From positions 26,148-90,147 of the forward strand of contig CAMTVX010000028.1 of assembly GCA_947085295.1 (NCBI GenBank): a stretch of DNA of 64,000 bases, in the 5' to 3' direction. A model generated the notes under the pieces. It did not search any database, was not told where the DNA came from, and saw nothing but the letters and a program-made list of their open reading frames with translations. This stretch comes from an uncultured Alphaproteobacteria bacterium (GTDB taxonomy: Bacteria; Pseudomonadota; Alphaproteobacteria; UBA11222). How positions within the stretch are numbered: the stretch's first letter is position 1; each line of letters begins with the position of its first letter. Shown piece after piece: positions 5,060 to 61,473 of the stretch. The position numbers and the translations under genes were made by a program.

Positions 5060-6805
5060 ATGAAAGGCAAAGAACAGTCGGAACTGGCCCAGGTTCTTGG
5101 CAAGTCCCGCTCCGCATTTATCGGCGCTGGCGTTTTCAGCTTTTTTATCAATCTGCTGATGCTGGTGTCGCCACTCTACATGTTGCAGATTTATGACCGG
5201 GTGCTGGCCAGCCGGAACGAGACCACTTTGTGGGTATTGACCCTTGTCGCGGTGTTCCTGATTGTTGTCTATGCCGCACTGGAAACCATGCGTTCGCGTG
5301 TGCTGGTGCGCATCAGCGGACAGATGGACAGCCTGTTGAACGCCCGGGTTTTTACCGCTTTGTTCAAATCCGCCGTGCGTGGGCCGGGGGGCGGATCCGG
5401 CCAGGCCATCCGGGATCTGGATTCGGTGCGCGACTTTTTGACCGGACAGGGGCTGTTTGCGTTTTTTGACGCGCCATGGATGCCGCTTTACCTGGCGGCG
5501 ATCTTCCTGATTGATCCCCTATTGGGCTGGGTGGCGACGGCGGGGGGTGTGACATTATTCGGACTTGCCGTGCTCACCGAAATTGCCACGCGCGATACAC
5601 TCAGTGAAGCAAGTGTCGCAAATATGCGCGCCGGGCATTTTGTTGAGGTCAGCCTGCGCAATGTCGAAGCGATTGAGGCGATGGGCATGGTCCCCGCCAT
5701 GCTCAAGCGCTGGCAGGGTCGGCGCGCCAAAATGCTGCAATTGCAGTCGCTGGCCAGCGACCGTGCGGGTGTCATTACGGCCTTGTCCAAATTCACACGC
5801 GTTGTATTGCAAATCGCCATTCTGGGCTTTGGCGCCTATCTGGTGATCCATGATCAAATCACGGCTGGTCTGATGATCGCCGCATCCATTATGATGGGCC
5901 GCGCTCTGGCGCCTGTGGAAATCGCGGTTGGTAGCTGGAAGCATTTTCTGACGGCCCGCAGTTCTTATGACCGCCTGAATGCCTTGCTCAAGGCCGTCCC
6001 CCCCCAACGTGACTTTATGCACCTGCCACCGCCGCTTGGCATTCTACAGGTGGAACAGGCCATTGTTGTGCCACCCGGCGCCACCGTGCCCGCGCTGAAG
6101 GGCGTGGGGTTCAATGTGGCCGCTGGCGATATTGTTGGCATTATCGGTCCCAGCGCTGCGGGAAAATCCACACTGGCGCGCTTGCTGGTTGGCGTTTGGC
6201 CAGCTTATGCCGGCAAGGTGCGCATTGATGGCGCCGACATTATGACCTGGGACCGTGAGCGCCTTGGCCCCTATATGGGCTATCTGCCGCAGGATGTTGA
6301 ATTGTTCGAGGGCACCATTGCCGAGAATATCGCCCGCTTTGGCGAGGTGGATGCGGATCAGGTAATTCTGGCAGCACAGCGCGCCGGGGTGCATGAGTTG
6401 ATACTCAAACTGCCCGCAGGATATGACACACAGATCGGGCCGGGTGGCCAAACGCTTTCCGGTGGCCAGCGCCAGCGCGTGGGTCTTGCGCGGGCATTAT
6501 ATGGCGACCCGGCGATTATCGTGCTGGATGAGCCCAACTCCAATCTGGATAATGATGGCGAAGCGGCACTGGCACGAACCGTTGCCGATCTGAAAGCGCG
6601 CAAGCGTACAACACTGGTAATTACGCACCGCCCCAGCCTGCTGGCGTCGGTTGACTATATTATGGTGATGCGCGAAGGATTAATCGAAAAATTTGGTCCG
6701 CGAGATGAGATTCTGGGTCAATATCTGCGTCCCGCTGCCGTGCCCAGCACGCCTGCCGAACCGGAACCCAACAGAGGCGGCGTAGCGGTGGTAAATCCGG
6801 CATGA
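5060..6805 (+). CDS. prtD: Type I secretion system ABC transporter (PrtD/AprD family; permease-ATPase without a C39 peptidase domain).
   Basis: The N-terminus FIGAGVFSFFINLLMLVSPLYMLQIYDRVL is typical of T1SS ABC exporters. It has a C-terminal nucleotide-binding domain with GPSAAGKST, LSGGQRQR and IVLDEPNSNLD. Confidence 0.85.
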   Translation: MKGKEQSELAQVLGKSRSAFIGAGVFSFFINLLMLVSPLYMLQIYDRVLASRNETTLWVLTLVAVFLIVVYAALETMRSRVLVRISGQMDSLLNARVFTALFKSAVRGPGGGSGQAIRDLDSVRDFLTGQGLFAFFDAPWMPLYLAAIFLIDPLLGWVATAGGVTLFGLAVLTEIATRDTLSEASVANMRAGHFVEVSLRNVEAIEAMGMVPAMLKRWQGRRAKMLQLQSLASDRAGVITALSKFTRVVLQIAILGFGAYLVIHDQITAGLMIAASIMMGRALAPVEIAVGSWKHFLTARSSYDRLNALLKAVPPQRDFMHLPPPLGILQVEQAIVVPPGATVPALKGVGFNVAAGDIVGIIGPSAAGKSTLARLLVGVWPAYAGKVRIDGADIMTWDRERLGPYMGYLPQDVELFEGTIAENIARFGEVDADQVILAAQRAGVHELILKLPAGYDTQIGPGGQTLSGGQRQRVGLARALYGDPAIIVLDEPNSNLDNDGEAALARTVADLKARKRTTLVITHRPSLLASVDYIMVMREGLIEKFGPRDEILGQYLRPAAVPSTPAEPEPNRGGVAVVNPA

Positions 6806-31803: not shown

Positions 31804-33087
31804 ATGAATATACTACTGATCGGTTCGGGCGGGCGCGAGCATGCGCTGGCGTGGGCGTTGCGCAAGTCGGCGTTGCTGGGCAAGCTGTATTGTGCGCCGG
31901 GGAATGGCGGGATTGCGGCGCTGGCGCAATGTGTGGTGCTTGATCCGCTGGACTTTGCCGCTGTCACCGCATTCGTGCGGGCGCACGACATTGGCTTTGT
32001 GATTGTCGGGCCGGAGGTTCCGCTGGTGGCGGGGCTGGTGGATCATCTCACCGAACAGGGTATCAGGGCATTTGGCCCGACGGCGGCGGCAGCGCGGCTG
32101 GAGGGATCAAAGGGTTTCACCAAGGATTTATGCGCGGCCAATAATATCCCTACGGCAGCCTATCAGCGGTTCAGCGACGCGGCCGCCGCCAAGGCCTATA
32201 TCCGCCAGCAGGGTGCCCCCATCGTAATCAAGGCCGATGGTCTTGCGGCCGGCAAGGGCGTGATCCTGGCCGAAACACTGGCGCAGGCGGAAGCCGCCGT
32301 CGATGACATTCTGGGCGGCGCATTTGGAAGTGCTGGCGCGGAGCTGGTGGTGGAAGAATTTTTATATGGCGAAGAGGCCAGTTTTTTTGTGCTGGTCGAT
32401 GGCAAGACCGCGCTGCCGCTGGCCACCGCGCAGGACCATAAACGGGTGGGCGATGGTGACACCGGCCCCAACACCGGCGGCATGGGGGCCTATTCGCCCG
32501 CACCGGTGATGAGCGATGAAATCTGCGCCCAGACCATGCAGCGCATCATTGAACCGACCGTTGCCGCCATGACGGCGGCGGGAACGCCGTTCAGGGGGGT
32601 GCTGTTCGCGGGGCTGATGATTACGGATAAGGGGCCGTATCTGATCGAATATAATACCCGCTTTGGCGACCCGGAATGTCAGGTGCTGATGGCGCGGCTG
32701 GAAAGCGATCTGCTACCCGCACTGCTGGCGTCAGCCGAGGGTAATCTGGCCGGTGTCAATTTACGCTGGTCACCACAGGCGGCGGTAACGGTGGTGATGG
32801 CAGCCAAAGGCTATCCCGGAGACTATAAAAAGGGCGAAGTTATTGTCGGGCTTGAAGCCGCAGGCCAAGGACCGGGCGTGCAGATATTTCATGCAGGAAC
32901 CACGGCCCGGAATGGCGAAATCCTTAGCAATGGCGGGCGGGTGCTGAATATCACCGCCACAGGCGACACCATTACCCAGGCCGTCAGCCGCGCCTACAGC
33001 GCCGCAGACAAAATTGACTGGCCAGGCGGATTCTGCCGCCGTGATATTGCGTGGCGGGCACTGGAAAGAGAGCGCCAAAGCAGCTAA
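31804..33087 (+). CDS. purD: Phosphoribosylamine--glycine ligase.
   Basis: [20 protein letters not shown]-terminus and an ATP-grasp domain; 427 aa. Confidence 0.95.
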
Positions 33088-33131
33088 TATGCGTTAACAT
33101 AAGAAAACAATCACAGCCGGGGACAGGAATC

Positions 33132-34208
33132 ATGGAAGAACCTAATAGACAGGAACAATTTTCCGGCACCAAAGAGGTTGATCCAAAGCATCGCCTGGAT
33201 GAAAAAGCGCTGTTCGCCTATATGCAAAAGCATGTGGAAGGTTTCCAGGGCCCACTACAGGTCGAGGAATTCAAGGGTGGCCAGTCCAACCCGACCTATA
33301 AGCTGATCACGCCGCGCGCGTCCTATGTACTGCGCCGCAAGCCGCCCGGCATTTTGCTGAAATCCGCGCATGCCGTAGACCGCGAATATAAGGTGATTTC
33401 AGCGCTGAATAAAACCAGCATCCCCGTGCCGCGCACCTTTTGCATGTGCGAGGATGAAAGCATTCTGGGCACCATGTTCTACATCATGGAATGCGTCGAA
33501 GGCCGGGTGTTCTGGGAACCGCTGGTGCCCGGCGTCAGCAAGCAGGACCGCAGCAAAATTTTCGACAGCCAGGTCAGCTTCCTGGCCAATCTGCACAAGG
33601 TCGATTACGCCGCCATCGGGCTGGGCGATTTTGGCAGCCCCGGCAATTATTTCGCGCGCCAGATTTCACGCTGGACCAAGCAATATCAGGCGTCCGTAAC
33701 CGAAGACATCCCGGAAATGAACCGGTTGATCGACTGGTTGCCCAACAATATTCCGCCCGATGATTCCGTCAGCCTGGTGCACGGCGATTTCCGGCTGGAC
33801 AATGCCATTGTGCATCCCACCGAGCCGCGCATTATTGCGGCACTTGATTGGGAACTGTCCACCATCGGCCACCCGCTGGGCGATTTTACCTATCATCTGA
33901 TGCAATGGCGCAGCCCGGATTCTGATCTGGGCACCACGCCGGAAGCCGAACTGCGCGCCCTGGGCATTCCACTGGAAAAAGACTATGCCGCGCGTTATTG
34001 CGAACTGGTCGGGCGTAAAAACATCGAAAATCTCGACTTTTACTTCGCCTATAATTTCTTCCGGCTGGCGGGCATTTTACAGGGCATTCTGGGCCGCGTA
34101 CGCGACGGCACAGCCGCCAGCGAACACGCCGCCGAACGCGCCGCCCGGGTGCGCCCACTCTCCGAAGCCGCCTGGAAATACGCTCAGGCGGCGGGCGCGG
34201 TGGGGTGA
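33132..34208 (+). CDS. Phosphotransferase (APH/ChoK-like kinase) family protein.
   Basis: The segment HGDFRLDNAI resembles an APH-family catalytic loop. A Gly-rich N-lobe is present. Start set at MEEPNRQ. Confidence 0.7.
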   Translation: MEEPNRQEQFSGTKEVDPKHRLDEKALFAYMQKHVEGFQGPLQVEEFKGGQSNPTYKLITPRASYVLRRKPPGILLKSAHAVDREYKVISALNKTSIPVPRTFCMCEDESILGTMFYIMECVEGRVFWEPLVPGVSKQDRSKIFDSQVSFLANLHKVDYAAIGLGDFGSPGNYFARQISRWTKQYQASVTEDIPEMNRLIDWLPNNIPPDDSVSLVHGDFRLDNAIVHPTEPRIIAALDWELSTIGHPLGDFTYHLMQWRSPDSDLGTTPEAELRALGIPLEKDYAARYCELVGRKNIENLDFYFAYNFFRLAGILQGILGRVRDGTAASEHAAERAARVRPLSEAAWKYAQAAGAVG

Positions 34209-34215
34209 GGCCCTG

Positions 34216-34530
34216 CTAGATTCCGGTTATCAGAAAATCCATGGCCGCTATGATTTCGTCACGATTTTGCGCCAACGACATCACTGCGGCGCCCAGCGCA
34301 ACCTTTGGCACCGCCGCGAGAAGTTCCGTCATCATCACCATGTTTGCGCCATCGATTTGAAACTGCGGGTGCAGGCGCTGCGCTGATTTTCCCACACTCT
34401 CGGTTGGCGCAATCGGGACGACCACCCGTGTTGAAAAACCGGACAGGAAATCGCTTTGCACATCCAGTAAATAAGGGACAGTCTGCGCGCTTTTTGGATT
34501 CGGGTTGCGGTAGACATCGAACTGCGCCAT
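34216..34530 (-). CDS. ccdB: Type II toxin CcdB family (gyrase poison).
   Basis: MAQFDVYRNPNPKSAQTVPYLLDVQSDFLSGFSTRVVVPIAPTES... and C-terminal ...MDFLITGI align along their length with E. coli CcdB. Confidence 0.8.
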   Translation of the reverse strand: MAQFDVYRNPNPKSAQTVPYLLDVQSDFLSGFSTRVVVPIAPTESVGKSAQRLHPQFQIDGANMVMMTELLAAVPKVALGAAVMSLAQNRDEIIAAMDFLITGI

Positions 34531-35123
34531 CAGAACTGCCGCAAGCCGTCGCTCCAAAGACCGTTGCGCTCGACGAACTGATTATGCGCCTCAATCGCCG
34601 CGCTGTTCTCCGCCTGCCAAAGTTCCTGTGCTTGTTGCGAAAGCAGTGTCGTGAGGCTGTTTTCCAGCGTTTCGGATAAATTGATGTTCAATAGCTTTGC
34701 CGCAGCAAGCAGTTTGGTATTAATCGAGAGGTTCACAGGCTTCTTATTGGCATGCGGCGCCTTGATCAGCGCATCCTGCAGATATTGGAAATCACATTCC
34801 CGGATCGCTGTGCGCTGGGCTGTCGCATTTTCAACGACTTTGGCGATTTTGGAAATATCTGATAGAGTGACACCAGCGGTTTTAAGGCTGTTTTCAATAA
34901 CTTCCACGTGTTTTTTGGCGTCATGCAGTACATTGTACGCATGCTGATAGCGGATCGAAAGTGCTTCGGCTATCCGGGCGGTTGGCCAGCCCGCTTCGGC
35001 TAAAGCCCTGATTTGTGCGCTTATCGTCCCATGCAATTGACGGATTTCCGCCAGTAATTTCTCATCTGGGTAGTTTGCAGGGATTGGCACGCGCGACCTC
35101 GTACATTCATCATGTATGCGCAT
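34530..35123 (-). CDS. ccdA: CcdA family antitoxin with an unusual ~115-aa N-terminal extension containing an HTH-like segment.
   Basis: The C-terminal 75 aa (KKPVNLSINTKLLAAAKLLNINLSETLENSLTTLLSQQAQELWQAENSAAIEAHNQFVERNGLWSD) match CcdA. The N-terminal region carries GWPTARIAEALSIRYQHAYNVL. Its stop overlaps the ccdB start (TGATG). Confidence 0.7.
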   Translation of the reverse strand: MRIHDECTRSRVPIPANYPDEKLLAEIRQLHGTISAQIRALAEAGWPTARIAEALSIRYQHAYNVLHDAKKHVEVIENSLKTAGVTLSDISKIAKVVENATAQRTAIRECDFQYLQDALIKAPHANKKPVNLSINTKLLAAAKLLNINLSETLENSLTTLLSQQAQELWQAENSAAIEAHNQFVERNGLWSDGLRQF

Positions 35124-35193
35124 AATATTATTATACCTACATAAGTCAATACCTATCTACCATAACAAAGGAGAGGCATGAACGCTCTGATGC

Positions 35194-35586
35194 CTACCGC
35201 CGCCTCTTACTTCTATCCATGTCCGCCGCGCGGGATTCCATCCGGTCTGCTTCATTGAGAAGTTCGGCGGCCTCGATCTGTTTGAAGTTGGCGTCTTCAA
35301 TCATGTCAGAGGATAACAGATTGCAATCGCGCGCGGCCTCCTTGTCCTCAATCCGCGCGCAATCCGCGATGATGCGTTGCCCCTCGGACATTTGCACTTT
35401 TGCGGCACGCAACAAAAGCTGCCCCTTGTTGCGCAGGCGAATGCCCTCGCAGGTATAGAAATCAATCTCCGGCATCCCCGACTTGTTGCAGATCCTTTCC
35501 GGTGCCTGGGCGCGCGCATCGCCGCTGAAACCGGCTGTCAGCGCAATCGCCAAAAATAAAACTGCACTAAAGTATCGCAAGAACAT
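35194..35586 (-). CDS. Hypothetical exported protein (signal peptide, four Cys).
   Basis: MFLRYFSAVLFLAIALTAGFSGDARA signal peptide; no family recognised. Confidence 0.45.
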   Translation of the reverse strand: MFLRYFSAVLFLAIALTAGFSGDARAQAPERICNKSGMPEIDFYTCEGIRLRNKGQLLLRAAKVQMSEGQRIIADCARIEDKEAARDCNLLSSDMIEDANFKQIEAAELLNEADRMESRAADMDRSKRRR

Positions 35587-35914
35587 TCTCCGGCGGACGG
35601 CCAATCGCGGCCTTGCCATTAGCCACAACAATGGGCCGTTCGATAAGTATGGGTGTATTGATCATCGCGCCAATAAGTTGGCCATGCGTCAATTTTTCTC
35701 TGTCCAGCTCCTGCTCCTTATACGCCGCTTCATCCTTGCGCATCAGATCACGAGGCTTCATTGCAAGCATCTGCAAAATATCTTCAAGCTCTTTAACCGT
35801 GGGAGGTGTCTGCAAATATTCAATCACCTGCGGCTTGATACCACGCTCCTTTAGTAACGCCAGCGTCAGGCGCGATTTTGTACAGCGTGGATTATGATAA
35901 ATTTTAACACTCAT
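35567..35914 (-). CDS. ArsC/Spx family reductase (YffB-like).
   Basis: MSVKIYHNPRCTKSRLTLALLKERGIKPQVIEYL with the CxxS/T-type ArsC family N-terminal motif. Confidence 0.8.
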   Translation of the reverse strand: MSVKIYHNPRCTKSRLTLALLKERGIKPQVIEYLQTPPTVKELEDILQMLAMKPRDLMRKDEAAYKEQELDREKLTHGQLIGAMINTPILIERPIVVANGKAAIGRPPENVLAIL

Positions 35915-35928
35915 TCTTTGTTTTTTCC

Positions 35929-36981
35929 TCAGGCATCAATCCCGACGGCTTTCTGAACACTGGCAAGGCCGTCTTTTTCTAATAACTCCCCCAACTCAAC
36001 CACTATCATAGCTGCCAAATCCGGCCCCGCAAAGGTCATTGCCGTATAAAGTTGAACCAGCGACGCGCCAGCGCGTATCTTGGCATAGGCATCCGCACCA
36101 CTGGCCACACCGCCCACACCTATCAGCACAAGTTTGCCTTCGGCAAGACGATACGCATCACGCAGTATCTGTGTCGATGGCTTGAACAATGGCCGCCCGG
36201 AAAGCCCGCCCTGTTCGCCGCGATGCCTGCTGCGCAAATTTTCGCGTCCGCCGATGGTGGTGTTGGAAATAATCAACCCGTCAATGCCCGCATCCAGCGC
36301 CACCGCCACCACATCGCGTAGCGCCTGTTCATCCAGGTCTGGCGCGATCTTCAACAACAGCGGCACATTTGTATTTTTGCGCGCGCGCGCCGCCAGCAAT
36401 TGCGCCAGCAGATTTTGCAACTGTTCGCGATCCTGCAATCCACGCAGGCCCGGCGTATTGGGCGACGACACGTTAATCGTGAAATAATCCACCAGCCCCG
36501 CCAGCGCCTCAAAACAGATCAGATAATCAGCGATGCGATCCACGCTGTCCTTGTTGGCGCCGATATTCGCGCCAACAACGCCGGGCCGCAAACGCCGCGC
36601 CGCCAGCCGCGCCCTGTAAACATCCAGCCCCTGATTGTTAAAGCCCAGCCGGTTGATGACAGCGCGATCTTCAGGCAGGCGAAATATGCGCGGGCGCGGA
36701 TTACCCGCCTGTGGCAATGGCGTTACCGTACCGGTTTCGGCAAAACCAAAACCCAGACGCAGCATCGCATCAGGCACTTCCGCGTTTTTGTCGAACCCGG
36801 CCGCTATTCCAATCGGGTTAGGAAAATTTAATCCAAGTACAGCGCTTTGAAGAGCCGGTTTTTGTGACCCGGAAATGCGCGGCCCAAAGCCCCGTTTAAG
36901 CGCGCGAATCGTCAGGCCGTGCGCCGTTTCCGGATCCAGCATGCGCAACAATGGCCCGGCAAGCGCGTACAGCCCCGCCAT
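35929..36981 (-). CDS. pyrD: Dihydroorotate dehydrogenase (quinone), class 2.
   Basis: TIM-barrel DHOD motifs (GFGFAETGTVTP, IGVGGVASG) and an N-terminal membrane-association segment. Confidence 0.9.
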   Translation of the reverse strand: MAGLYALAGPLLRMLDPETAHGLTIRALKRGFGPRISGSQKPALQSAVLGLNFPNPIGIAAGFDKNAEVPDAMLRLGFGFAETGTVTPLPQAGNPRPRIFRLPEDRAVINRLGFNNQGLDVYRARLAARRLRPGVVGANIGANKDSVDRIADYLICFEALAGLVDYFTINVSSPNTPGLRGLQDREQLQNLLAQLLAARARKNTNVPLLLKIAPDLDEQALRDVVAVALDAGIDGLIISNTTIGGRENLRSRHRGEQGGLSGRPLFKPSTQILRDAYRLAEGKLVLIGVGGVASGADAYAKIRAGASLVQLYTAMTFAGPDLAAMIVVELGELLEKDGLASVQKAVGIDA

Positions 36982-37332
36982 TCAAATACCTGTTTCCGCT
37001 GAAAATTCATGCATACCGTCATCCCCAAGGGGCAATTCATACACCCGCGCAATTTTGTTCAGCGGTAGTACCCCATACAGATGCGGAAATAAATCCCCGC
37101 CGCGTGAAGGTTCCCAGCGCAAATCCATCGCCAGGTGATCCGGATCAATGGCCAGCAATACCAGGTTCGTCTCGCCGGCAAAATGTCGCGCGGCGGTTTC
37201 GCGAACCTGTCTGGCGGTTGAAAAATGGATAAACCCATCTGCGATATCGACGGGTGCGCCGATTAACTGGCCCTGTGCGCGCGCCGCCTGCCATTCGGTC
37301 TGGTGTAAAATTTTATAGATGAAATCCGGCAT
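36982..37332 (-). CDS. DUF952 domain protein.
   Basis: MPDFIYKILHQTEWQAARAQGQLIGAPVDIADGFIHFSTARQVRETAARHFAG...WEPSRGGDLFPHLYG is the characteristic ~115-aa family. The longer 254-aa ORF-track call would collide with the divergent repressor gene. Confidence 0.75.
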   Translation of the reverse strand: MPDFIYKILHQTEWQAARAQGQLIGAPVDIADGFIHFSTARQVRETAARHFAGETNLVLLAIDPDHLAMDLRWEPSRGGDLFPHLYGVLPLNKIARVYELPLGDDGMHEFSAETGI

Positions 37333-37370
37333 TTTCGGCTTCCCATTACTGCCATAATAAGCTAAAAATC

Positions 37371-37384
37371 CTATCCCGTGATAG
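37371..37384. promoter_or_regulatory. CTATC-N4-GATAG palindrome in the 67-bp divergent promoter region between the DUF952 and S24-repressor genes (candidate operator).
   Basis: ctatcccgtgatag read directly from the sequence. Confidence 0.3.
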
Positions 37385-37399
37385 ATGTCATAAAAAGCC

Positions 37400-38035
37400 A
37401 TGTTAAGCCATAAACAAGTTTGGGAAGGAATCGACGCGCTTGCGGCGGCCCACGGGTTTTCTCCGTCCGGGCTGGCCAAGCGCGCAGGGCTGGACCCGAC
37501 AATTTTCAACCGTTCAAAACGCTTGCAGGATGGCAAACAGCGCTGGCCCAGCACGGAAAGCCTGTCGCGCGTTCTGGCCGTTACGGGCGCGTCGATTGCC
37601 GATTTTGCGCTATTGATTTCGCCGGCGACGGATGTTGCCGCGCGCAATTCCCGGCCTATCCCGGTTATTGGCTTTGCCCAGGCCGGGGCGCAGGGCTTTT
37701 TCGATGATGGCGGCTTTCCGGTAGGCGGCGGCTGGGATACCGTCAATTTCCCCGGCCTTGGCGATGAAAACGCCTATGCGCTGGAAATCAGTGGTGACAG
37801 CATGCTGCCGGTATATCGCGATGGCGATATTGTCGTTGTCTCGCCCCATGCGGATGTGCGACGCGGGGACCGGGTGATCGCCAAAACCCTGAACGGTGAA
37901 GTCATGGTGAAACAGTTACTGCGCAAAACCGTCAGCCGGGTGGAACTGGCTTCGTTCAACCCGGAATTTCCGCTGCGCAGCTTCTCGCCTGCTGATATTA
38001 GCTGGATAGCCCGCATCATCTGGGCATCGCAATAG
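37400..38035 (+). CDS. XRE-HTH / S24 peptidase family repressor (phage CI / SetR-like, LexA-type autocleavage domain).
   Basis: N-terminal HTH, a C-terminal GDSMLP (Ser nucleophile) and a downstream VMVKQLL (Lys) dyad. It is not canonical alphaproteobacterial LexA. Confidence 0.75.
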   Translation: MLSHKQVWEGIDALAAAHGFSPSGLAKRAGLDPTIFNRSKRLQDGKQRWPSTESLSRVLAVTGASIADFALLISPATDVAARNSRPIPVIGFAQAGAQGFFDDGGFPVGGGWDTVNFPGLGDENAYALEISGDSMLPVYRDGDIVVVSPHADVRRGDRVIAKTLNGEVMVKQLLRKTVSRVELASFNPEFPLRSFSPADISWIARIIWASQ

Positions 38036-38038
38036 GCG

Positions 38039-38287
38039 TTAATTGCAGCCTTCTTTTCCACCGATGCATCCACAATTCGGAAAAACATCGGTTCCCAGGC
38101 GCGTCAAATGTCCCTCTACTGCGGCGCGCAATAAATCCTGGCTGGTCCAACCCAGCTTTGCGGCGGCAACCTGCACCCGGTGATAAAGTGCCGGATCCAG
38201 CCGGAAGGTCAGTGCCTTCATGCCTCCTGATTTATTATCCTCGGTAATGCGCTGCGGTCGCATCGGTTTGACAATCTGGGCAGGCAT
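38039..38287 (-). CDS. Ribbon-helix-helix (CopG/ParG-like) DNA-binding protein with a disordered N-terminal tail.
   Basis: C-terminal MKALTFRLDPALYHRVQVAAAKLGWTSQDLLRAAVEGHL is an RHH motif. It lies downstream of the ParA-like gene. The start is uncertain (the ORF track extends to 38530). Confidence 0.5.
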   Translation of the reverse strand: MPAQIVKPMRPQRITEDNKSGGMKALTFRLDPALYHRVQVAAAKLGWTSQDLLRAAVEGHLTRLGTDVFPNCGCIGGKEGCN

Positions 38288-38584
38288 ATCGCAATTTTGC
38301 TGCCTGGGACGAAATTCAGATGGCGGCGCACTTGCAGGCGCGCTCGGCCTTTCTGTTTCAAAAACATCAGGACTAAAGTGCGAAGTAGGTAACGCCTCAC
38401 CTTTGCGGGAAATAAGCCCGCTGTGAAGCGAAGTATATTTTTCCATGCTCATACCGAAATATCCTGTTTGGGCGTAATAGTGCCGACCAGCGCCTGGTGT
38501 GCGGGCTGCGTAGTGGCTTTCATCACGCAATCATGCCTTGCCAACATACACAGACGCCATAAGGCGTGTGTGTCTTGACACCGG

Positions 38585-39694
38585 TTACGCGCGTCGGCCA
38601 AAGCCCATCATGCGATTGATGAACGGGGCGTTCATGCCGCGCTTTGCCGGCGCCATATCCTTCAGAATCTGTTCTGGCTTGATCGCCTCCTCGCAAGCGT
38701 CGCCGGAGCCAAGAATTTCTTCCAAAGAGGTGGGATAATCCAGCTCACCGCGCAATCGCTGCACGGCCTCCAGCAATGCCTGTTGTGGATTTTCCACCAG
38801 AGGCGGGGGTACGCTGGCCGAATCGAACGCCACATCGGCTTTGATATTCTGCACTTCAGGCGTGGGCATAACCGGCGCATTTAATTGGGTATTCTCGAAT
38901 GCTTCGAGCAGCGCCGGAATATTTGCCACCGACGGTTTGGAAATCGCGGAAGCAAGCGTCGCCAGATCTGCATTTTGTGCTACTGCGGCCCGCGACACCG
39001 TTTCCGGCAGCATATTTTTCTGGGCTTCAAAATCAAACCCGACCGGATCGATAAAATCTACCGGACCCCCATCCAGTCTTGCCAGGCGGCCAGACAGATA
39101 GCTCCATAAATCGCTTACTTCCTTTGCCGATGCGCCTTTCGCACTATGCTCCATCACGGTGCGGCCATCGGTCATACTGGCTGCAAAATCCACACGATGG
39201 TTTAACATGACGGGCGCGACGGTGCCGTGCTGCGACAATGCCACGGCCGCTTCGGACGTGATCTTGGCGCGCGCGGTGGCGGCATTAATCACAAACACCA
39301 TCGCCTTGTTGTGCGCGGCAGCGATTTCAACTGTCGCGCCAACGGCACGCAGATCATGCGGGCTGGGCCGCGTAGGCATCACCACAAGATCCGCAAAGCT
39401 GACCACATGCGAAATGGCTTTTGTCACCGCAGGCGGCGTGTCGATAAACACCATCTTGAACCCCTGCGCACGCAGGCTATCCACATCTGCTTGCAGGCTG
39501 TCAAATCGCGCGCCAACAAAGGCCGGGGTTTCCGCCGCACGTGCATTCCACCATTTGGCCAGACTGCCCTGCGGATCGGTATCAATCAGCGCGACGGGGC
39601 CCTGGCCGGATAATTCAGCCTGCACGGCAAGGTGTCCGGCCAGCGTGGTTTTGCCTGAGCCGCCCTTTTGCGATGCGAGAACAATAATACGCAT
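38585..39694 (-). CDS. ParA/MinD-family ATPase with a ~170-aa Ala/Pro/Val-rich C-terminal extension.
   Basis: Deviant Walker A motif ASQKGGSGKTT at residues 8-18 of the MRIIVL start. The ParA core ends near residue ~200, followed by a low-complexity tail. The ORF-track start at 39802 was trimmed. Confidence 0.8.
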   Translation of the reverse strand: MRIIVLASQKGGSGKTTLAGHLAVQAELSGQGPVALIDTDPQGSLAKWWNARAAETPAFVGARFDSLQADVDSLRAQGFKMVFIDTPPAVTKAISHVVSFADLVVMPTRPSPHDLRAVGATVEIAAAHNKAMVFVINAATARAKITSEAAVALSQHGTVAPVMLNHRVDFAASMTDGRTVMEHSAKGASAKEVSDLWSYLSGRLARLDGGPVDFIDPVGFDFEAQKNMLPETVSRAAVAQNADLATLASAISKPSVANIPALLEAFENTQLNAPVMPTPEVQNIKADVAFDSASVPPPLVENPQQALLEAVQRLRGELDYPTSLEEILGSGDACEEAIKPEQILKDMAPAKRGMNAPFINRMMGFGRRA

Positions 39695-40104
39695 ACTCTC
39701 TCCTTTCGGTAGCCCCGCTGCCCTGCCTTTCATAAAGGAATGGGGCCGGTAGCTTTGCGTCCCGTCATTCCTGACGGGTTGCCGTTTCGAGAAGCGCGTC
39801 ACCCCTGCATCTTAACGCAAAGGTGCTGGCCCCCGTCCTGTGTCAGGTCATTCCCAAAATTCACTTCGTCAGATGCTTATCCAATTGCGCGAACTTCGTA
39901 TGCCCTATGCCGACCATTTAAGCGCTAACAGCTTAATTTCCAGTAAAATTAATCCCTGTTGGCCATTGCGCACACACAGTTTTTTGTTAGTAAACTGTTG
40001 ACCATGTTTGCTTTTTTGGCACTGGACTGTTGTTGGGGCTTGCGCCGGGGCTGGTGTCGTGCTAATTTCTTACCAAATATATGTCGATAGAAAAAGGTAA
40101 GAAA

Positions 40105-40317
40105 ATGGCTGATACCGCAACCCTTTCGGCAAAGTTCCAGATATCTATCCCCAAGGCGGTGCGCACGGCGCGAAAATGGCGGGCGGGACAGGAATTTGCC
40201 TTCATTCCCAAAGGCGCGGGTGTGCTTTTGATCCCGGTTCCCGAAGCGGATGAACTTGCCGGAATCGCCAAAGGCGCGAAGCCGGTGGATTATCGGGACC
40301 GGAACGACCGCTTCTGA
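40105..40317 (+). CDS. vapB: AbrB/MazE/SpoVT-type antitoxin (VapB).
   Basis: MADTATLSAKFQISIPKAVR swapped-hairpin motif. Its stop overlaps the vapC start. Confidence 0.75.
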   Translation: MADTATLSAKFQISIPKAVRTARKWRAGQEFAFIPKGAGVLLIPVPEADELAGIAKGAKPVDYRDRNDRF

Positions 40318-40697
40318 TGCGCCTTGTGGACACATCCGCCTGGGTTGAATGGCTGATCGCATCACCCACGGGCAAAGCCGTCGCATCCGCCATCCCCGCG
40401 CGCGAAGACTGGCTGGTGCCGACCATCGTACAACTCGAACTCGCCAAATGGCTGACGCGCGAGGTTGGCGAGGACAAGGCCGATCAGGTCGTGGCTTTCA
40501 CACAAATGTGCCATGTCGCGCCGCTGGACACCAAAATCGCCCTGGCGGCGGCGGAACTGTGCCGCCAGCACAAACTCGCCACCGCCGACGCGATTGTCTA
40601 CGCCACCGCGCGGGAGTTTGGCGCCGAGCTGTTAACCTGCGATGTGGATTTTAAGGGGCTGCCGGGTGTGGTATTTGTGGGGAAGGTGGGGGGTTGA
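40317..40697 (+). CDS. vapC: PIN-domain toxin VapC.
   Basis: MRLVDTSAWVEWL with the acidic PIN residues (D5, E..., D...). 126 aa. Confidence 0.85.
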   Translation: MRLVDTSAWVEWLIASPTGKAVASAIPAREDWLVPTIVQLELAKWLTREVGEDKADQVVAFTQMCHVAPLDTKIALAAAELCRQHKLATADAIVYATAREFGAELLTCDVDFKGLPGVVFVGKVGG

Positions 40698-40768
40698 CCT
40701 ACAGTCCACTTAAATTCATCATCTCGCCGTGCCTTTTAAAGACAATCTAAAGAATAGAGAAAATCAGT

Positions 40769-41635
40769 ATGATTAACTTTACCTTGGAGTATGCAGGGAG
40801 GGATGCCGACGATCATAAAATCGATTTTTATGATGTCGCTCACGCGATAATTGGATTCCAGCGTTCTTTGGCAATCACAACGCATCTTGTGCTCACTGGT
40901 GAGATAATCACTCAAGCGCCTTCGCTACAAAATGCAAGAATTCTTACTGTACCTCCGCAAGAAGGGAGTTGGGCAATTACCGCAATTATTGTTGGCGCGG
41001 TGTTTGCGGCCGGAACGGCCTCAAAAGATACTCCAATCGGTCATCTTATCCATTCCGCTTATGATTACATAATTTCCGAATTGCTTGGCTTTCATGTGGA
41101 TTACGAAAAATCGCTTGGTCAGCAGTATGAGCTTCTAAAGAAGGGGCCTGAATCAACAATACCAATGCTCGAACAGTCTAAAATGGATTCAGCAATTGAA
41201 AAATGTGAAGGTGCTATTAACGATATGCACCGGCCAATTTGGAAATCTCAAACGGCATTAACTGCCGAACTAATATCTCACATAGGTCTAGATAAAAAAA
41301 TATTTGGGCAGCAGCTGAATATAGAGACTTATGAACATATTAACTTCACTCGTAGAATATCTGATAATTATAGAATTTCCGGTCGCGTCTCTAGTTATAA
41401 TATCAATACCTACAAAGGACGTATTTTTCTTCCCGAAGAGAAACGCCCAATCCCATTTATTTTGGCAGATAAGGCAAAAAACAACCTCAGTGTTGAATTG
41501 ATCACGCGCAGCTTGACAATGAATGCTCGAAATAGATCCAGACCAGAGGGGAATATTAGCTGCATTGCATATCGGGATTTAAGTCGTACTGGGCGACTAA
41601 AAAGTCTGTTTATAATAGAGGTTTTAGCGGATTGA
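40769..41635 (+). CDS. Hypothetical protein, 288 aa, AT-rich orphan gene (island cargo); no family recognised.
   Basis: Coding GC ~42% against ~60% in the flanks. It lies immediately 3' of vapBC, inside a repressor/ParA/TA cluster. Mixed alpha/beta, with no TM helix and no common catalytic motif seen. Confidence 0.5.
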   Translation: MINFTLEYAGRDADDHKIDFYDVAHAIIGFQRSLAITTHLVLTGEIITQAPSLQNARILTVPPQEGSWAITAIIVGAVFAAGTASKDTPIGHLIHSAYDYIISELLGFHVDYEKSLGQQYELLKKGPESTIPMLEQSKMDSAIEKCEGAINDMHRPIWKSQTALTAELISHIGLDKKIFGQQLNIETYEHINFTRRISDNYRISGRVSSYNINTYKGRIFLPEEKRPIPFILADKAKNNLSVELITRSLTMNARNRSRPEGNISCIAYRDLSRTGRLKSLFIIEVLAD

Positions 41636-41700
41636 GCTAGAGACAAAAATTATAAAGCGAGTGCGGTGTCTAGTCCTCTTAGAGCCGATTTGTTCCCTGC

Positions 41701-44013
41701 TTATCTATGATGCCCTTTCGCATCTCGCAATGCCTGCCACATGGCGAACGGCGTCAACGGCATATCGACATGCGTGATGCCCAGATGCGCCACGGCGTCC
41801 AGCACGGCGTTTACCAGCGCGGGCGGTGCGCCGGTTGAGCCGGCTTCGCCGCAGCCTTTGATGCCCATCTCATTAGTGGTGCAGGGGGCGTTTTTGAAGG
41901 CGATGGTAAAATCCGGCATGTCATCGGCGCGCGGCATCCAGTAATCGAGGAAAGAGCCGCTGAGCATCTGCCCGGTTTGCGGGTCATACACCGCATGCTC
42001 GCCCAGCGCCTGGCCCAGTCCCTGCACGATGCCGCCATGCACCTGCCCCTCGACGATCATCGGGTTCAGCACATTGCCGAAATCATCCACGGCGGTATAA
42101 TTCAGCACACGGATGATGCCGGTTTGCGGGTCTATGCCCACTTCGCAGATGTGGCAGCCATTGGGAAACTGAAACGGCGTGTTGTGATATTCGCCATTGG
42201 CGCCAAGGCCCTCATTGCCATTGGCGCGCGCAGTGTCAAACAGGCTGATGGCGCGATCCGTGCCCGAAATTCGAAACTGCCCTGCTTCATATTCAATATC
42301 AACAGCGGCCGCTTCCAGTTGTTCGGCGGCGATCAGTTTGCCCTTGGCAATTGTTGCTTGCGCCGCGAGATTGGCCGCACCGCTGCCCATCAGGCCGGAG
42401 CCGGAGCCGCCCGAAAGCCCCCCACCCGGCCATTCATTCGTGTCACCACTGGTGACAGTAATGCGCTCAAACGGCACGCCCAGCGCATCGGCAATGATCT
42501 GCGCATACACTGTTTCATGGCCCATGCCATTGGACTGATTGCCCATGAACACCCGGATCGTATCATCGGGCAGTACATCGACGCGCGCGGTTTCCATCGG
42601 CGGGCCACCGGCCTTTTCCACATAATAGGCCATGCCGATGCCGGACAGTTCGCCCCGCGTCATGCGTTCACGCTTGCGTGGCCCAAAGCCATCCCAATCG
42701 GCAAGGCTTTTGGCCTCATTCATCACATTCAGAAAATCGCCACTGTCATAAATATAGCCACCGGAAGTGGCGTAGGGCATCTGCTCCGGGCGGATAAAAT
42801 TGCGCGCGCGCAGTTCATCGGGCGCAATGCCCATTTCACGCGCGGCGGCATCGGCCAGACGTTCGATGATATAGGCCGCCTCAGGTCGCCCCGCACCGCG
42901 ATAGGCATCGGTTGGCACCGTGTTGGTAAATGCCGGTGTAACATTGAGATACATCGCCGGAATATCATACACGCCGACCTGCAATCCACCCGCGCCCAGA
43001 CACGACACACCCGGCCCCATCACTGAGGCATAGGCACCCGTATTGGAAATTGTGCGCACCCGCACCGCCAGCATGCGCCCGTCTTTATCCAGCGCCAGTT
43101 CCGCCTCGTTCACCTGATCGCGGCCCTGATTATCGGTGAGAAAACTCTCAGAGCGTTCCGCCGTCCATTTCACCGTGCGGCCAATATGCTTCGCGGCCCA
43201 TAAGGTGGCAATCTGTTCGGGATACAAAAACGCCTTCATGCCGAAACTGCCGCCCACATCATAGGTGCGCACCCGCATCTTTTCAGGCGGTATATGAAAC
43301 ACCGCCTCGGCGGTTAATCCGCGCCAGCGAAACACCCCCTGGGTTGCGGTGTGCATGGTGTACTGATCCGTTGACGGATCATATTCCGCTATCGCCATGC
43401 GCGGCTCCATCGCATTGGCGACCAGACGGTTATTCACCAGACGAAGCCGTGTTACGTGATGCGCGCTGGCAAAGGCCGCATCGGTAGCGGCGCGGTTTCC
43501 CAGTTCCCAATCCACCACCAGATTACCCGGCGCCTCTGGCCAGATTTGCGGCGCGCCGGGGGCCAGCGCCTGAACAGCATCGGTAACGGCGGGCAGTTCT
43601 TCGTAATCCACCACTACCAGATCAACGGCGTCGCGGGCCTGCTGCCATGTTTTGGCAACCACCATCGCAACAGGATCGCCCGCATGGCGCGCAATATCCG
43701 TACAAAGCGCTGATCGGTGCGGCGTTACATTGGCGGGGCCACCATCCCGGCCGGGCAGCACGGCGATACACGGCATGCCGCCAAGCCCGGCGGTGACCAT
43801 GTCCTTGGCGGTTAATACGGCAATGACGCCTGGGGCGGCGCTGGCTTCGGAACTATCAATACCCATTATCCGGGCATGGGCATGGGGCGAGCGCACAAAA
43901 CAGACATAGGTCTGCCCTGGCACATTTACATCATCGCCATAACGGCCCTTGCCAATGATAAACCGGTCATCTTCCTTGCGACGATACGGTTGGCCAACAG
44001 CAAATATGCCCAT
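41701..44013 (-). CDS. Molybdopterin-binding large subunit of a xanthine dehydrogenase / CO dehydrogenase (CoxL-like) family molybdenum hydroxylase.
   Basis: 770 aa. The N-terminus MGIFAVGQPYRRKEDDRFIIGKGRYGDDVNVPGQTYVCFVRSPHAHARI and MoCo-binding segments (GGSFG, GxGxRE) are present. No adjacent 2Fe-2S or FAD subunit genes. Confidence 0.85.
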   Translation of the reverse strand: MGIFAVGQPYRRKEDDRFIIGKGRYGDDVNVPGQTYVCFVRSPHAHARIMGIDSSEASAAPGVIAVLTAKDMVTAGLGGMPCIAVLPGRDGGPANVTPHRSALCTDIARHAGDPVAMVVAKTWQQARDAVDLVVVDYEELPAVTDAVQALAPGAPQIWPEAPGNLVVDWELGNRAATDAAFASAHHVTRLRLVNNRLVANAMEPRMAIAEYDPSTDQYTMHTATQGVFRWRGLTAEAVFHIPPEKMRVRTYDVGGSFGMKAFLYPEQIATLWAAKHIGRTVKWTAERSESFLTDNQGRDQVNEAELALDKDGRMLAVRVRTISNTGAYASVMGPGVSCLGAGGLQVGVYDIPAMYLNVTPAFTNTVPTDAYRGAGRPEAAYIIERLADAAAREMGIAPDELRARNFIRPEQMPYATSGGYIYDSGDFLNVMNEAKSLADWDGFGPRKRERMTRGELSGIGMAYYVEKAGGPPMETARVDVLPDDTIRVFMGNQSNGMGHETVYAQIIADALGVPFERITVTSGDTNEWPGGGLSGGSGSGLMGSGAANLAAQATIAKGKLIAAEQLEAAAVDIEYEAGQFRISGTDRAISLFDTARANGNEGLGANGEYHNTPFQFPNGCHICEVGIDPQTGIIRVLNYTAVDDFGNVLNPMIVEGQVHGGIVQGLGQALGEHAVYDPQTGQMLSGSFLDYWMPRADDMPDFTIAFKNAPCTTNEMGIKGCGEAGSTGAPPALVNAVLDAVAHLGITHVDMPLTPFAMWQALRDAKGHHR

Positions 44014-44187
44014 GATTCTGGTTCCTTATGAATTTCAACAGACGCGGCCATCCTAGCAGACCACGGGCCTAATTCTGACAGATATTGCGCCAAATTGGCT
44101 ATTTGTGTATGTATGCTCAACTTTTGGCGTTTGAGGCCGGTTTACGCCCCTCTGCCCCGCCCGTTACGTAAGGATCAGCATAGGCTT

Positions 44188-44502
44188 ATGGAAACCGTCA
44201 TTATTGTCATTCACCTGATTTTGGCCATTGCGCTGGTCATTACCGTGCTTTTACAGCAATCAGAAGGCGGCGCGCTGGGCATTGGCGCAAGCCCTATGGG
44301 CGGCTTTATGACCGGACGCGGCGCGGCCAATCTTTTAACCCGTGTCACGGCCGTTCTTGCGGCAGGGTTTTTTGGCACATCTATTGTGCTTACCATACTG
44401 GCGCGCGACACTGTAACGGCCCCTTCGATACTCGATTCGGAGCCCGCTGTCGAAAAACCTGCGGCTGCACCCGAAACACCCTCGGTTCCTTCCTCGCAAT
44501 AG
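44188..44502 (+). CDS. secG: Preprotein translocase subunit SecG.
   Basis: METVIIVIHLILAIALVITVLLQQSEGGALG is the SecG signature; the ORF-track start was trimmed to this Met. Confidence 0.85.
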   Translation: METVIIVIHLILAIALVITVLLQQSEGGALGIGASPMGGFMTGRGAANLLTRVTAVLAAGFFGTSIVLTILARDTVTAPSILDSEPAVEKPAAAPETPSVPSSQ

Positions 44503-44536
44503 CGGCTGGAATCTGCTGCTTTTCATAATTATGTAA

Positions 44537-47046
<2,510 letters not shown>

Positions 47047-59388: not shown

Positions 59389-61473
<2,085 letters not shown>

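Follow-up and report, generated by a model that had tools for sequence, protein, structure and literature searches.

The block at positions 37333-41650 of the window (the whole 64,000-nt stretch of DNA analyzed here) probably consists of three unrelated things side by side rather than one decayed mobile element (Table 1). The first is a conserved host LexA/CI-like HTH-S24 regulator. The second is a plasmid-derived, long-domesticated ParA/adaptor pair with a c-di-GMP riboswitch, and the third is a small swap-in islet with a toxin-antitoxin pair and accessory genes, which is the sole recently acquired DNA in the block. The riboswitch, located between parA and vapB, was missed in a sequence-only reading of this DNA, and our best reading is that c-di-GMP controls translation of the domesticated partition-type system. 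Loci from relatives that we compared with the window carry L-numbers (L001, L006, etc.).

Table 1. Coordinates of features in and around the block
Feature	Position	Strand	Evidence or context
pyrD	35929-36981		After DUF952 gene; core context
DUF952 gene	36982-37332	-	Pfam DUF952, E 1e-32; divergent from S24 gene
Palindrome CTATCCCGTGATAG	37371-37384	.	Between -10-like box and S24 start codon
HTH + S24 LexA/CI-like regulator, 211 aa	37400-38035	+	Pfam Peptidase_S24, E 4e-23
ParG-like adaptor, 137 aa	38039-38452	-	Multiple alignment, AF2 model, hhalign
ParA-like Walker ATPase, 369 aa	38585-39694	-	NCBIfam equivalog NF041546 ParA_partition, 166 bits, below cutoff of 180
Shine-Dalgarno (SD) GGAGAGAG	39696-39703	-	Directly after aptamer; sequence
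c-di-GMP-I (GEMM-I) riboswitch aptamer	39704-39793	-	Rfam RF03167, 61.5 bits, E 4e-12
Anti-SD CUUCUC	39790-39795	-	Just 5' of P1
Leader hairpin CACCUUUGCGU-UAAG-AUGCAGGGGUG	39800-39825	-	5' of aptamer; MFE folds
Palindrome TAATTTTACTGGAAATTA	39934-39951	.	parA upstream region
Variable islet, 1.7 kb	40018-41731	.	Between parA promoter region and CoxL gene 3' end
vapB (AbrB/MazE-type)	40081-40317	+	TIGR01439, E 5e-8
vapC (PIN)	40317-40697	+	PIN, E 4e-20
DUF7946+DUF7947 gene, 288 aa	40769-41635	+	Pfam, E 1e-38 and 2e-16

The c-di-GMP-I riboswitch upstream of parA

Comparative sequence analysis gives good support for the existence of the riboswitch, and c-di-GMP is its predicted ligand. Our own covariance model scored the window aptamer at 104.8 bits and placed an aptamer immediately 5' of parA at 16 species-level loci; among long-tailed relatives, all nine that were examined have it. 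Aptamers at the same position in five relatives matched RF01051 at 61-65.5 bits (threshold, 35). In an alignment of 14 sequences, 96.9% of cells were paired, compared to 26-49% in slid-partner controls, and eight pairs displayed compensatory (double) changes. The GNRA loop on the first hairpin is GGAA in the window and GGAA, GUGA, GUAA, or GAAA in the aptamers overall. The contact bases are a G before the GC pair, an A after ACGC, and a C before the 3' strand of P1, which we take to be the equivalents of Vc2 G20, A47, and C92. The aptamer is missing from ~69 of 83 ParA loci, so control by c-di-GMP is not an inherent property of the module.

The SD and the AUG do not vary and lie next to the aptamer, the distance from the end of P1 to the SD is 0-3 nt, and CCGAAAGGAGAGAnnATGCGTATTAT is invariant in six relatives. 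In the window, the parA ATG is at 39694-39692, and the 9 nt between aptamer and ATG leave no room for a terminator. The anti-SD followed by ACGCG can pair with GGAGAG and AUGCGU, and the MFE fold contains the aptamer, in which an extended P1 spans both the SD and the AUG. This extended P1 reaches the GG of the SD in 12 of the 16 loci, and in L131, where CUUCUC is replaced by CCUCCUC, the pairing is kept. Since the bases 5' of P1 can pair with the SD and the start codon, c-di-GMP is most likely an OFF signal, a direction in which we have moderate confidence. Binding of c-di-GMP would most likely stabilize the extended P1 and hide the ribosome-binding site and start codon, and high c-di-GMP would lower translation of ParA and of the downstream adaptor. 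Computed SD accessibility with and without an enforced aptamer had no consistent direction across 13 loci, and flank duplex energies were no better than those of shuffles.

An ON switch, in which the SD is trapped without ligand and freed by c-di-GMP so that ParA and the adaptor are made at high c-di-GMP, appears rather doubtful. One candidate for the trap is an upstream block at 39815-39839, with 80% complementarity to 39736-39760 within the aptamer; the other is a UUCCUUU-AAAGGAG pairing. In favor of an ON switch, the 25-nt inverted repeat ranks first in the region, a competing fold is found within ~7 kcal/mol of the MFE, and SD accessibility goes up in some loci (L025, L009, L011, and L014) once the aptamer is enforced. 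However, a conserved hairpin locally ties up the upstream block, UUCCUUU conservation breaks down in L006 and L130, and the anti-SD beside P1 is more widely conserved. L001, L006, L130, and L132 all retain the leader hairpin, with compensatory changes.

A c-di-GMP riboswitch before a ParA pair would couple, at the RNA level, second-messenger signaling with a machine of the partition type, and it offers a direct, testable handle that predicts when the system is made. In the literature, we found no report of such an RNA-level link or of a c-di-GMP-I riboswitch with a ParA/RHH partition-type operon, and no experiment or publication on the ParA/adaptor module.

The ParA/adaptor module

ParA consists of an ATPase domain (about residues 1-210), a lineage-specific insert of ~125 aa, which accounts for the long tail described earlier, and an invariant C-terminal FGRR. 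Among solved structures, ParF/ParA of TP228 come closest to it (E 3e-15), and its ATPase domain shares 55-64% identity with the ParA proteins of small plasmids. ParA relatives are present in at least 587 species genomes, and those that are taxon-labeled are almost all alphaproteobacterial; the deviant Walker A motif KGGSGKT is invariant. The gene for the RHH protein had been read as an open reading frame at 38039-38530, the real start of which is at about 38452. This adaptor comprises an N-terminal peptide (SLHSGLIARKGEAxP), a Pro-rich disordered linker, a C-terminal RHH domain, and a cysteine tail (FPNCGCIxGxxGC). In the AF2 model, residues 80-125 have pLDDT values of 79-90 with helices at 87-99 and 104-123, and the N-terminus is disordered; a Foldseek comparison with RHH proteins gave no significant match (E > 3). 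Profile comparison related the adaptor to the 80-aa partner encoded beside repA on a 15.5-kb plasmid (Deefgea piscis plasmid NZ_CP054145; hhalign probability 95.9%, E 5.8e-9), with which it has the N-terminal peptide and the C-terminal RHH domain in common. In 76 of 82 loci, ParA is followed downstream by an adaptor-homologous ORF, and the N-terminal peptide is present in ~50 of 72 partner ORFs.

The earlier proposal of a partition pair is borne out by homology, which assigns the pair to the type Ib (ParF/ParG-like) systems. ParA is small and ParF-related with a deviant Walker A motif, and the partner has, as judged from architecture and homology, the predicted flexible N-tail and C-terminal RHH domain of this type; in relatives, the genes are chromosomal and not carried by an extrachromosomal replicon that they would serve. 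These comparisons support that ParA and the adaptor are a two-gene module homologous to type Ib small-plasmid partition pairs. In this lineage, the module is domesticated: it lies amid core genes (pyrD, pyrG, secG, and purD) on chromosomes of 3-5 Mb in relatives, with conserved synteny and host-like composition. Homology to plasmid ParA/ParG-like proteins predicts that the N-terminal peptide of the adaptor stimulates the ParA ATPase and that DNA is bound by the C-terminal RHH dimer. The palindrome TAATTTTACTGGAAATTA may serve the RHH partner as an operator or a centromere-like site; it does not differ among the window, L001, and L006, whereas its flanks do, and it occurs once in the window (0.01 copies expected by chance). 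Our search turned up this one candidate DNA site and no repeated centromere array. Loci of other clades carry different AT-rich inverted repeats.

ATPases of the ParA/MinD type are responsible for positioning chromosomes, plasmids, and protein machines. For the module, we tentatively suggest an ancient capture of a plasmid partition machine by an alphaproteobacterial chromosome, with gain of the FGRR tail and the adaptor cysteine motif, such that positioning or segregation of a DNA site or cellular cargo may be switched in step with the c-di-GMP program, be it motile-sessile or cell-cycle. It is unlikely that ParA/RHH moves no cargo and is instead a pair of transcription factors tuned by c-di-GMP (RHH repressor and ParA corepressor) or an addiction/defense-like module. 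The operon has no conserved third gene or repeat array beside it in the loci compared, a single conserved palindrome lies upstream, and chromosomal toxin-antitoxin modules are abundant nearby; moreover, type Ib partners (ParG and omega) are known autorepressors. On the other hand, the ATPase domain has stayed 60-75% identical without variation in any nucleotide-binding motif, and the partner retains an ATPase-stimulating-type peptide, which argues for a working ATPase cycle. PADLOC gave no match. A type Ib pair that is fixed across hundreds of alphaproteobacterial chromosomes and has no known cargo poses a cell-biology question.

The S24 regulator, the islet, and the origin of the block

The S24 protein aligns over its full length with PHROG 4 "transcriptional repressor" (E 1e-26), its N-terminal domain had no Pfam HTH match, and Ala95-Gly96, Ser134, and Lys171 are invariant. 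With the Ser/Lys dyad, the Ala-Gly site, and the N-terminal region, it belongs to the LexA/CI-type self-cleaving repressors. It is not LexA itself, as it scored 36.8 bits against the LexA equivalog (cutoff, 110.95). The protein is 94% identical to its L001 counterpart, and >7,900 homologues, 60-65% identical at full length, are encoded on Mb-size chromosomes; linkage to ParA is confined to this lineage and absent elsewhere. The S24 gene is a core alphaproteobacterial LexA/CI-like paralogue and a host gene. What holds of the CI/SetR-type assignment made earlier is the S24 domain, the dyad, and the cleavage site; the element context does not, as the gene is a core gene outside any prophage or ICE. 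CTATC-N4-GATAG, to which the sequence-only reading drew attention, has a single match in the whole window, and relatives keep it in part, as CTAT-N6-ATAG; a 5+5 palindrome is statistically ordinary. TATAAT-TCCTAT is conserved as far as Ancylobacter. The palindrome is a candidate auto-operator to which the S24 protein is predicted to bind, and the regulator probably represses its own promoter and would be inactivated via self-cleavage.

Alignment to relatives located the boundaries of variable DNA. Homology with L001 breaks at 40017/40018 and 41731/41732, and homology with L006 breaks at 40695/40696 and 41731/41732. The slot is occupied by a 123-aa HTH-like ORF in L001, a SIR2-like gene and vapBC in L006, and DUF6979, a 59-aa ORF, and vapBC in L132. 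In the window, vapB and vapC overlap by 1 nt, and the VapC translation contains visible D5, E, D, and D residues; an AbrB/MazE antitoxin gene overlapping a PIN gene with acidic residues identifies a VapBC type II toxin-antitoxin system. The L006 copies at the same place are 90%/87% identical, L132 has a PIN pair there, and vapBC is absent in L001-4. The AT-rich gene (GC 0.39-0.44) is absent from all relatives compared. Its DUF7946/7947 product matched phrog_13337 (E 6e-26); searches of plasmids and phages gave just two hits, both of them weak and both to plasmids. The islet varies between relatives and includes one AT-rich gene, and in these respects partly resembles a mobile element; it has no integrase, and its direct repeat matches at only 13/15 positions.

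That all of 37333-41650 is the decayed regulatory/maintenance backbone of one integrated plasmid or ICE, as originally claimed, is very unlikely and largely refuted by synteny, as judged from the sequence comparisons. In its favor are the homology of ParA and its partner to proteins of plasmid partition, the match of the S24 protein to profiles of phage repressors, the adjoining vapBC and AT-rich gene, and a Skermanella S24 homologue that neighbors phage genes. However, distant genera keep S24 divergent from DUF952-pyrD without ParA nearby, ParA and partner occur without S24 in most lineages, and variability is limited to the islet. The divergent DUF952-pyrD/S24 layout is common to L001-4, L006, L130, L132, and Ancylobacter L086 and L088, and S24, partner, and ParA are syntenic in L001-L004, L006, L130, and L132 (ParA 64-80% identical), colinear down to 64% ParA identity and host-like in GC. 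This three-gene block does not show the marks of an integrated mobile element, namely an integrase or relaxase, att repeats or a tRNA target, absence from the site in relatives, and foreign composition. The flanks, DUF952/pyrD on one side and a CoxL-like gene on the other, are as described earlier, as is the lack of a tRNA in the window. The stretch 33000-45000 is colinear with L001 except for the islet, so there is no room for an integrase within it, and the sole flanking repeat is an imperfect 15-mer (13/15) of the kind expected by chance. The sequence-only reading had itself held that conservation and host-like composition outside the cargo would count against mobile origin; this is what the relatives display. 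Accessory status holds for vapBC and the AT-rich gene, and the genes of the block do not form a single unit. The adjacency of repressor, ParA, and toxin-antitoxin genes mimics a mobile-element backbone but here involves mostly core genes, an annotation trap that is now corrected.

Comparison with known systems

Like LexA, lambda CI, and SetR, the S24 regulator combines an S24 domain containing a Ser-Lys dyad and an Ala-Gly cleavage site with an N-terminal DNA-binding region and a palindrome over its own promoter; unlike the SetR/CI family, its gene lies outside a prophage or ICE and is tied to DUF952-pyrD. The aptamer has the fold of Vibrio cholerae Vc2 (RF01051), with two hairpins, a GNRA loop, and P1, and shares with the c-di-GMP-I class the cores GGCAAACC and GGGACGCAAAGC, the 5'-UTR position, and an SD directly after P1; unlike in known cases, the predicted target is a ParA/RHH partition-type operon in Alphaproteobacteria. 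An orphan c-di-GMP-I-GGC variant with another ligand is extremely improbable: RF03167, in the same clan (CL00126) as RF01051, is the best-scoring Rfam model (gathering score, 59) and L058 likewise matches it, but the defining A-to-G change at the A47 equivalent (ACGCGAAGC) is missing, the window and all 16 related aptamers having A (ACGCAAAGC or ACGCAAAAC), near-identical relatives are called RF01051, and none of 39 metagenomic loci with the GGC core pattern, not all of them true aptamers, lies upstream of this ParA. Those loci precede Flp pilin-like and large secreted proteins instead.

CdbA of Myxococcus xanthus is an RHH nucleoid protein that binds c-di-GMP (PMC7156744). As would hold for the adaptor, it is an RHH DNA-binding protein tied to c-di-GMP and chromosome organization, and it was among the adaptor's weak, non-significant fold matches; in CdbA the c-di-GMP link is through protein binding, whereas here it would be through an RNA switch. 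Also among the closest known systems are the type Ib plasmid systems (ParF/ParG of TP228, and ParA with a small RHH partner on small proteobacterial plasmids such as that of Deefgea), which likewise have a small deviant-Walker-A ATPase, a partner made up of N-peptide, flexible linker, and C-terminal RHH domain, and the order parA-partner with an AT-rich palindrome upstream. Unlike these, the module described here is chromosomal and lies among core genes in at least 587 species, with no replicon or centromere array identified with it; its ParA has a C-terminal extension ending in FGRR and a 125-aa lineage insert, its adaptor is longer and has a CxC cysteine tail, and a subset of loci is under predicted riboswitch control.

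Gene order and variability of the block

All genes named in the sequence-only reading were recovered by ORF listing and profile searches, its palindrome CTATCCCGTGATAG was located, and no tRNA gene was found within the window. Its interpretation of the block as a single mobile element did not hold: gene order is kept in relatives, GC content is similar to that of the flanks (0.54-0.61 for S24-partner-ParA), and variability is confined to 40018-41731.

Features in and around the block, with their positions in the window
Feature	Position	Strand	Basis
DUF952 gene	36982-37332	-	ORF listing and profile searches
Palindrome CTATCCCGTGATAG	37371-37384
HTH+S24 protein gene	37400-38035	+	ORF listing and profile searches
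Partner ORF, C-terminal ribbon-helix-helix (RHH)	38039-38530, real start near 38452	-	ORF listing and profile searches
ParA-like ATPase gene	38585-39694	-	ORF listing and profile searches
c-di-GMP-I-clan aptamer	39704-39792	-	Rfam scan
Palindrome TAATTTTACTGGAAATTA (18 nt)	39934-39951
vapB	40081-40317		ORF listing and profile searches
vapC	40317-40697		ORF listing and profile searches
DUF7946+DUF7947 gene, 288 aa, in 39-44% GC trough	40769-41635		Profile searches and composition
CoxL-like gene	41701-44013	-	ORF listing and profile searches
TPP riboswitch (RF00059, 70.5 bits)	61278-61379	-	Whole-window Rfam scan

Five relatives with ParA 79-80% identical to that of the window (L001-L004 and L006, a Pseudomonadota MAG that is the closest species genome) share the order secG, CoxL, a variable slot, riboswitch, ParA, partner and, on the opposite strand, S24, followed by DUF952, pyrD, ArsC, a hypothetical gene, ccdAB, APH and purD. 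Positions 33000-45000 are colinear with L001 at 81-88% identity apart from 40018-41731. Among more distant relatives, the entire gene order is retained in L132 (ParA 66%), ParA-partner-S24-DUF952-pyrD in a different left context in L130 (64%), and ParA and partner alone in L131 (64%). S24-partner-ParA combines synteny with host-like composition, which the sequence-only reading itself had taken as counting against a mobile origin. The ccdAB pair at 34216-35123 (-) comprises a 113-aa ccdB and an unusually long ccdA of 197 aa, in which an N-terminal extension of ~125 aa with a weak HTH_23 match precedes the CcdA domain; the pair is kept at the same place in L001-L004 and L132 and is missing in L130.

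The proposed alignment to relatives gave insertion boundaries for the vapBC-DUF7946/7947 islet and none for S24-partner-ParA, which is colinear. Homology ends at 40017/40018 and 41731/41732 with L001, and at 40695/40696 and 41731/41732 with L006. Cargo in the slot beside the CoxL gene differs from genome to genome: the DUF7946/7947 gene in the window, a SIR2-like gene in L006 (weak Pfam match, E 0.004), DUF6979 and a 59-aa ORF in L132, and a 123-aa HTH-like ORF in L001. vapBC is common to the window, L006 (90%/87% identical) and L132 and is missing from L001-L004. The DUF7946/7947 protein matches phrog_13337; it gave no PADLOC match, no phage match and two weak plasmid matches only, and we found nothing on it in the literature. 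The suggested search for att-like repeats gave no convincing pair: a 15-mer direct repeat (13/15; 40720-40734 and 41721-41735) brackets this gene, and its right copy falls in the last CoxL codons, exactly where the CoxL C-terminus differs from those of relatives, but it is the sole candidate around the islet and one among 13 similar chance-level repeat families. We conclude that this 1.7-kb segment, a small variable hotspot lacking an integrase, is the only part of recent horizontal origin.

The ParA/partner pair and the S24 regulator

The assignment of a ParA/ParG-like pair stands by homology; the pair is, however, an old chromosomal resident. At least 587 species genomes encode ~245-aa ParA proteins that share 60-75% identity with the ParA ATPase domain (~210 aa); the carriers include Sphingomonadales, Hyphomonadaceae, Maricaulis, Marinicaulis, Parvibaculum, Micropepsaceae and Hyphomicrobiales, and complete 3-5 Mb chromosomes. 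Among solved structures, ParF/ParA of plasmid TP228 are the nearest, and identity to ParAs of small proteobacterial plasmids is 55-64%; a 15.5-kb Deefgea plasmid has the order relBE-like, ParA, 80-aa protein, RepA. All chromosomal ParA homologues have an extended C-terminus that closes with an invariant FGRR (38585-38600, -, in the window), whereas the plasmid ParA lacks it; the "long tail" of the window ParA is an insert of ~125 aa ahead of this end. In neighbour clustering, ParA (82 loci) was accompanied consistently by the partner alone (76 loci), with no conserved third gene or cargo beside the operon. A defence annotation was not supported: none of the six proteins had a PADLOC match.

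The partner profile matches the 80-aa plasmid protein, which reads MSKTASLTSGLVAKKGQAAP...KALTVKLDRERYEALKNAGIKLDKKSQEIFVEALDSWL, across both ends (hhalign 95.9%, E 5.8e-9). In the window partner, MSMEKYTSLHSGLISRKGEALP is followed by a Pro-rich linker, KALTFRLDPALYHRVQVAAAKLGWTSQDLLRAAVEGHL and FPNCGCIGGKEGCN. An AF2 model is disordered at the N-terminus and confident for a C-domain of strand-helix-helix fold; its top-ranked Foldseek matches are RHH proteins, at non-significant scores. The N-terminal peptide (F/Y)ASLxxGLLARKGxAxP occurs in ~50 of 72 partner ORFs, with all lineages represented. The window partner has conserved cysteines at C54 and, past the RHH, at C127-x-C129...C136 (FPNCGCIxGxxGC), which could form a metal or redox site. 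Among the partner ORFs of the window and L005-L085, the CxC tail is present in most lineages and missing in Sphingomonadales and Marinicaulis. The FGRR end and the CxC tail are features of the chromosomal version only. In most other lineages the parA and partner genes adjoin or overlap; in the window, 130 nt separate the parA stop from the partner start and contain the hairpin ACACACGCC-UUAU-GGCGUCUGUGU (38500-38585, -). The partner and S24 genes are convergent, with 3 nt between their stop codons (38033-38041) and no space for terminators.

The S24 protein is the most conserved of the neighbourhood (94% identity to L001 versus 85% for pyrD) and has thousands of full-length homologues on Mb-size chromosomes throughout Alphaproteobacteria, at 60-65% identity. 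Its gene is divergent from DUF952-pyrD also in Ancylobacter (L086) and one more genome (L088), both without ParA nearby. Because of this conservation, spread and linkage, it is a core LexA/CI-like paralogue and not a prophage or ICE repressor. Ala95-Gly96, Ser134 and Lys171 are invariant, which suggests that self-cleavage chemistry is retained. The palindrome CTATCCCGTGATAG is flanked by a conserved TATAAT-like box on one side and the S24 start codon on the other, and is only partially conserved in close relatives, as CTAT-N6-ATAG. In Skermanella stibiiresistens (L087, 1-6633), an S24 homologue adjoins integrase, T7-like capsid and head-tail connector genes and lies near GapR, a context unlike the DUF952-pyrD one.

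A c-di-GMP-I aptamer upstream of parA

The Rfam scan identified a c-di-GMP-I-clan aptamer (61.5 bits, E 4e-12), missed by the sequence-only reading, that stops 9 nt short of the parA ATG and is followed directly by the Shine-Dalgarno (SD) sequence GGAGAGAG. RF01051 matches of 61-65.5 bits occupy the same position in five relatives. With a covariance model derived from nine copies, a scan of the ParA loci placed the aptamer immediately 5' of parA in the window, L001-L004, L005, L006, L009, L011, L012 and L014; further such loci are L017, L025, L045, L050, L058 and L130-L132. The ~69 other ParA loci and the two plasmids lack it. Carriers fall into at least three groups by ParA identity. Relatives with and without the riboswitch in one clade have a common upstream promoter-like block, so the ~100-nt aptamer behaves as an insertable or deletable module. 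In L050, an additional aptamer (5300-5382) precedes a different ORF ~600 nt from the one preceding parA (5893-5978).

The fold is well supported: 96.9% of cells are paired versus 26-49% in slid registers, eight pairs show compensatory changes, and all first-hairpin loops are GNRA. The Rfam label RF03167 suggested the GGC (orphan-ligand) variant, which was rejected: all copies read ACGCAAAGC (or ACGCAAAAC), with an A at the diagnostic site where that variant has G; the other two contact positions are G and C. A GGC-core scan of metagenomes gave 39 loci, none (0/39) upstream of this ParA. On these observations the aptamer is a canonical c-di-GMP-I one, the label being a near-threshold call. GGC-core matches (ACGCGAAGC; L091-L129) lie upstream of a Flp-pilin-like gene in L106 and of large secreted proteins in L096, L100, L102 and L103, with an SD directly 3' of the closing helix P1 in several loci.

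Upstream DNA sites, predicted control and known systems

The palindrome TAATTTTACTGGAAATTA, which occurs once in the window and is unchanged in L001 and L006, is a candidate operator or centromere-like site. We found no repeat array and, upstream of parA, no operator shared across lineages; AT-rich repeats there are clade-specific. The parA upstream regions of the window, L001 and L006 also have in common the block AAACATGGTCAAC (39998-40010; TTGACCAT on the opposite strand), which resembles, with one mismatch, a CtrA half-site (TTAACCAT).

A terminator would not fit, which argues for control at translation initiation (or via Rho), and CCGAAAGGAGAGAnnATGCGTATTAT is invariant in six relatives with 64-97% ParA identity. 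The minimum free energy (MFE) fold of the leader contains the aptamer, with P1 extended by UUCUC/GAGAG pairing, then by CGCG/UGCG of the start codon region. Allowing a 2-nt bulge, 12 of 16 loci have an extension long enough to include the SD GG, and in L131 CCUCCUC replaces CUUCUC (39790-39795 in the window) with pairing preserved. A hairpin 5' of the aptamer (39800-39825) is preserved with compensatory changes. Alternatively, a 25-nt upstream block, 80% complementary to the aptamer core, could pair with it in a fold modelled at ~7 kcal/mol above the MFE. In RNAduplex, neither the pairing of long upstream regions with the aptamer nor that of the short flanks was better than that of shuffles. 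Partition-function SD accessibility with and without the aptamer enforced gave no consistent sign. We predict with good confidence that translation of parA-partner is controlled by c-di-GMP, and lean modestly towards a switch that is OFF at high c-di-GMP.

In the literature, we found no description of a c-di-GMP riboswitch before a partition-type operon, of this widespread chromosomal type Ib module, or of its FGRR or CxC additions. The S24 protein belongs to the known LexA/CI-like superfamily; the RNA falls in an established class, the c-di-GMP-I riboswitch, and the ParA/partner proteins represent a variant of an established system type, type Ib partition.
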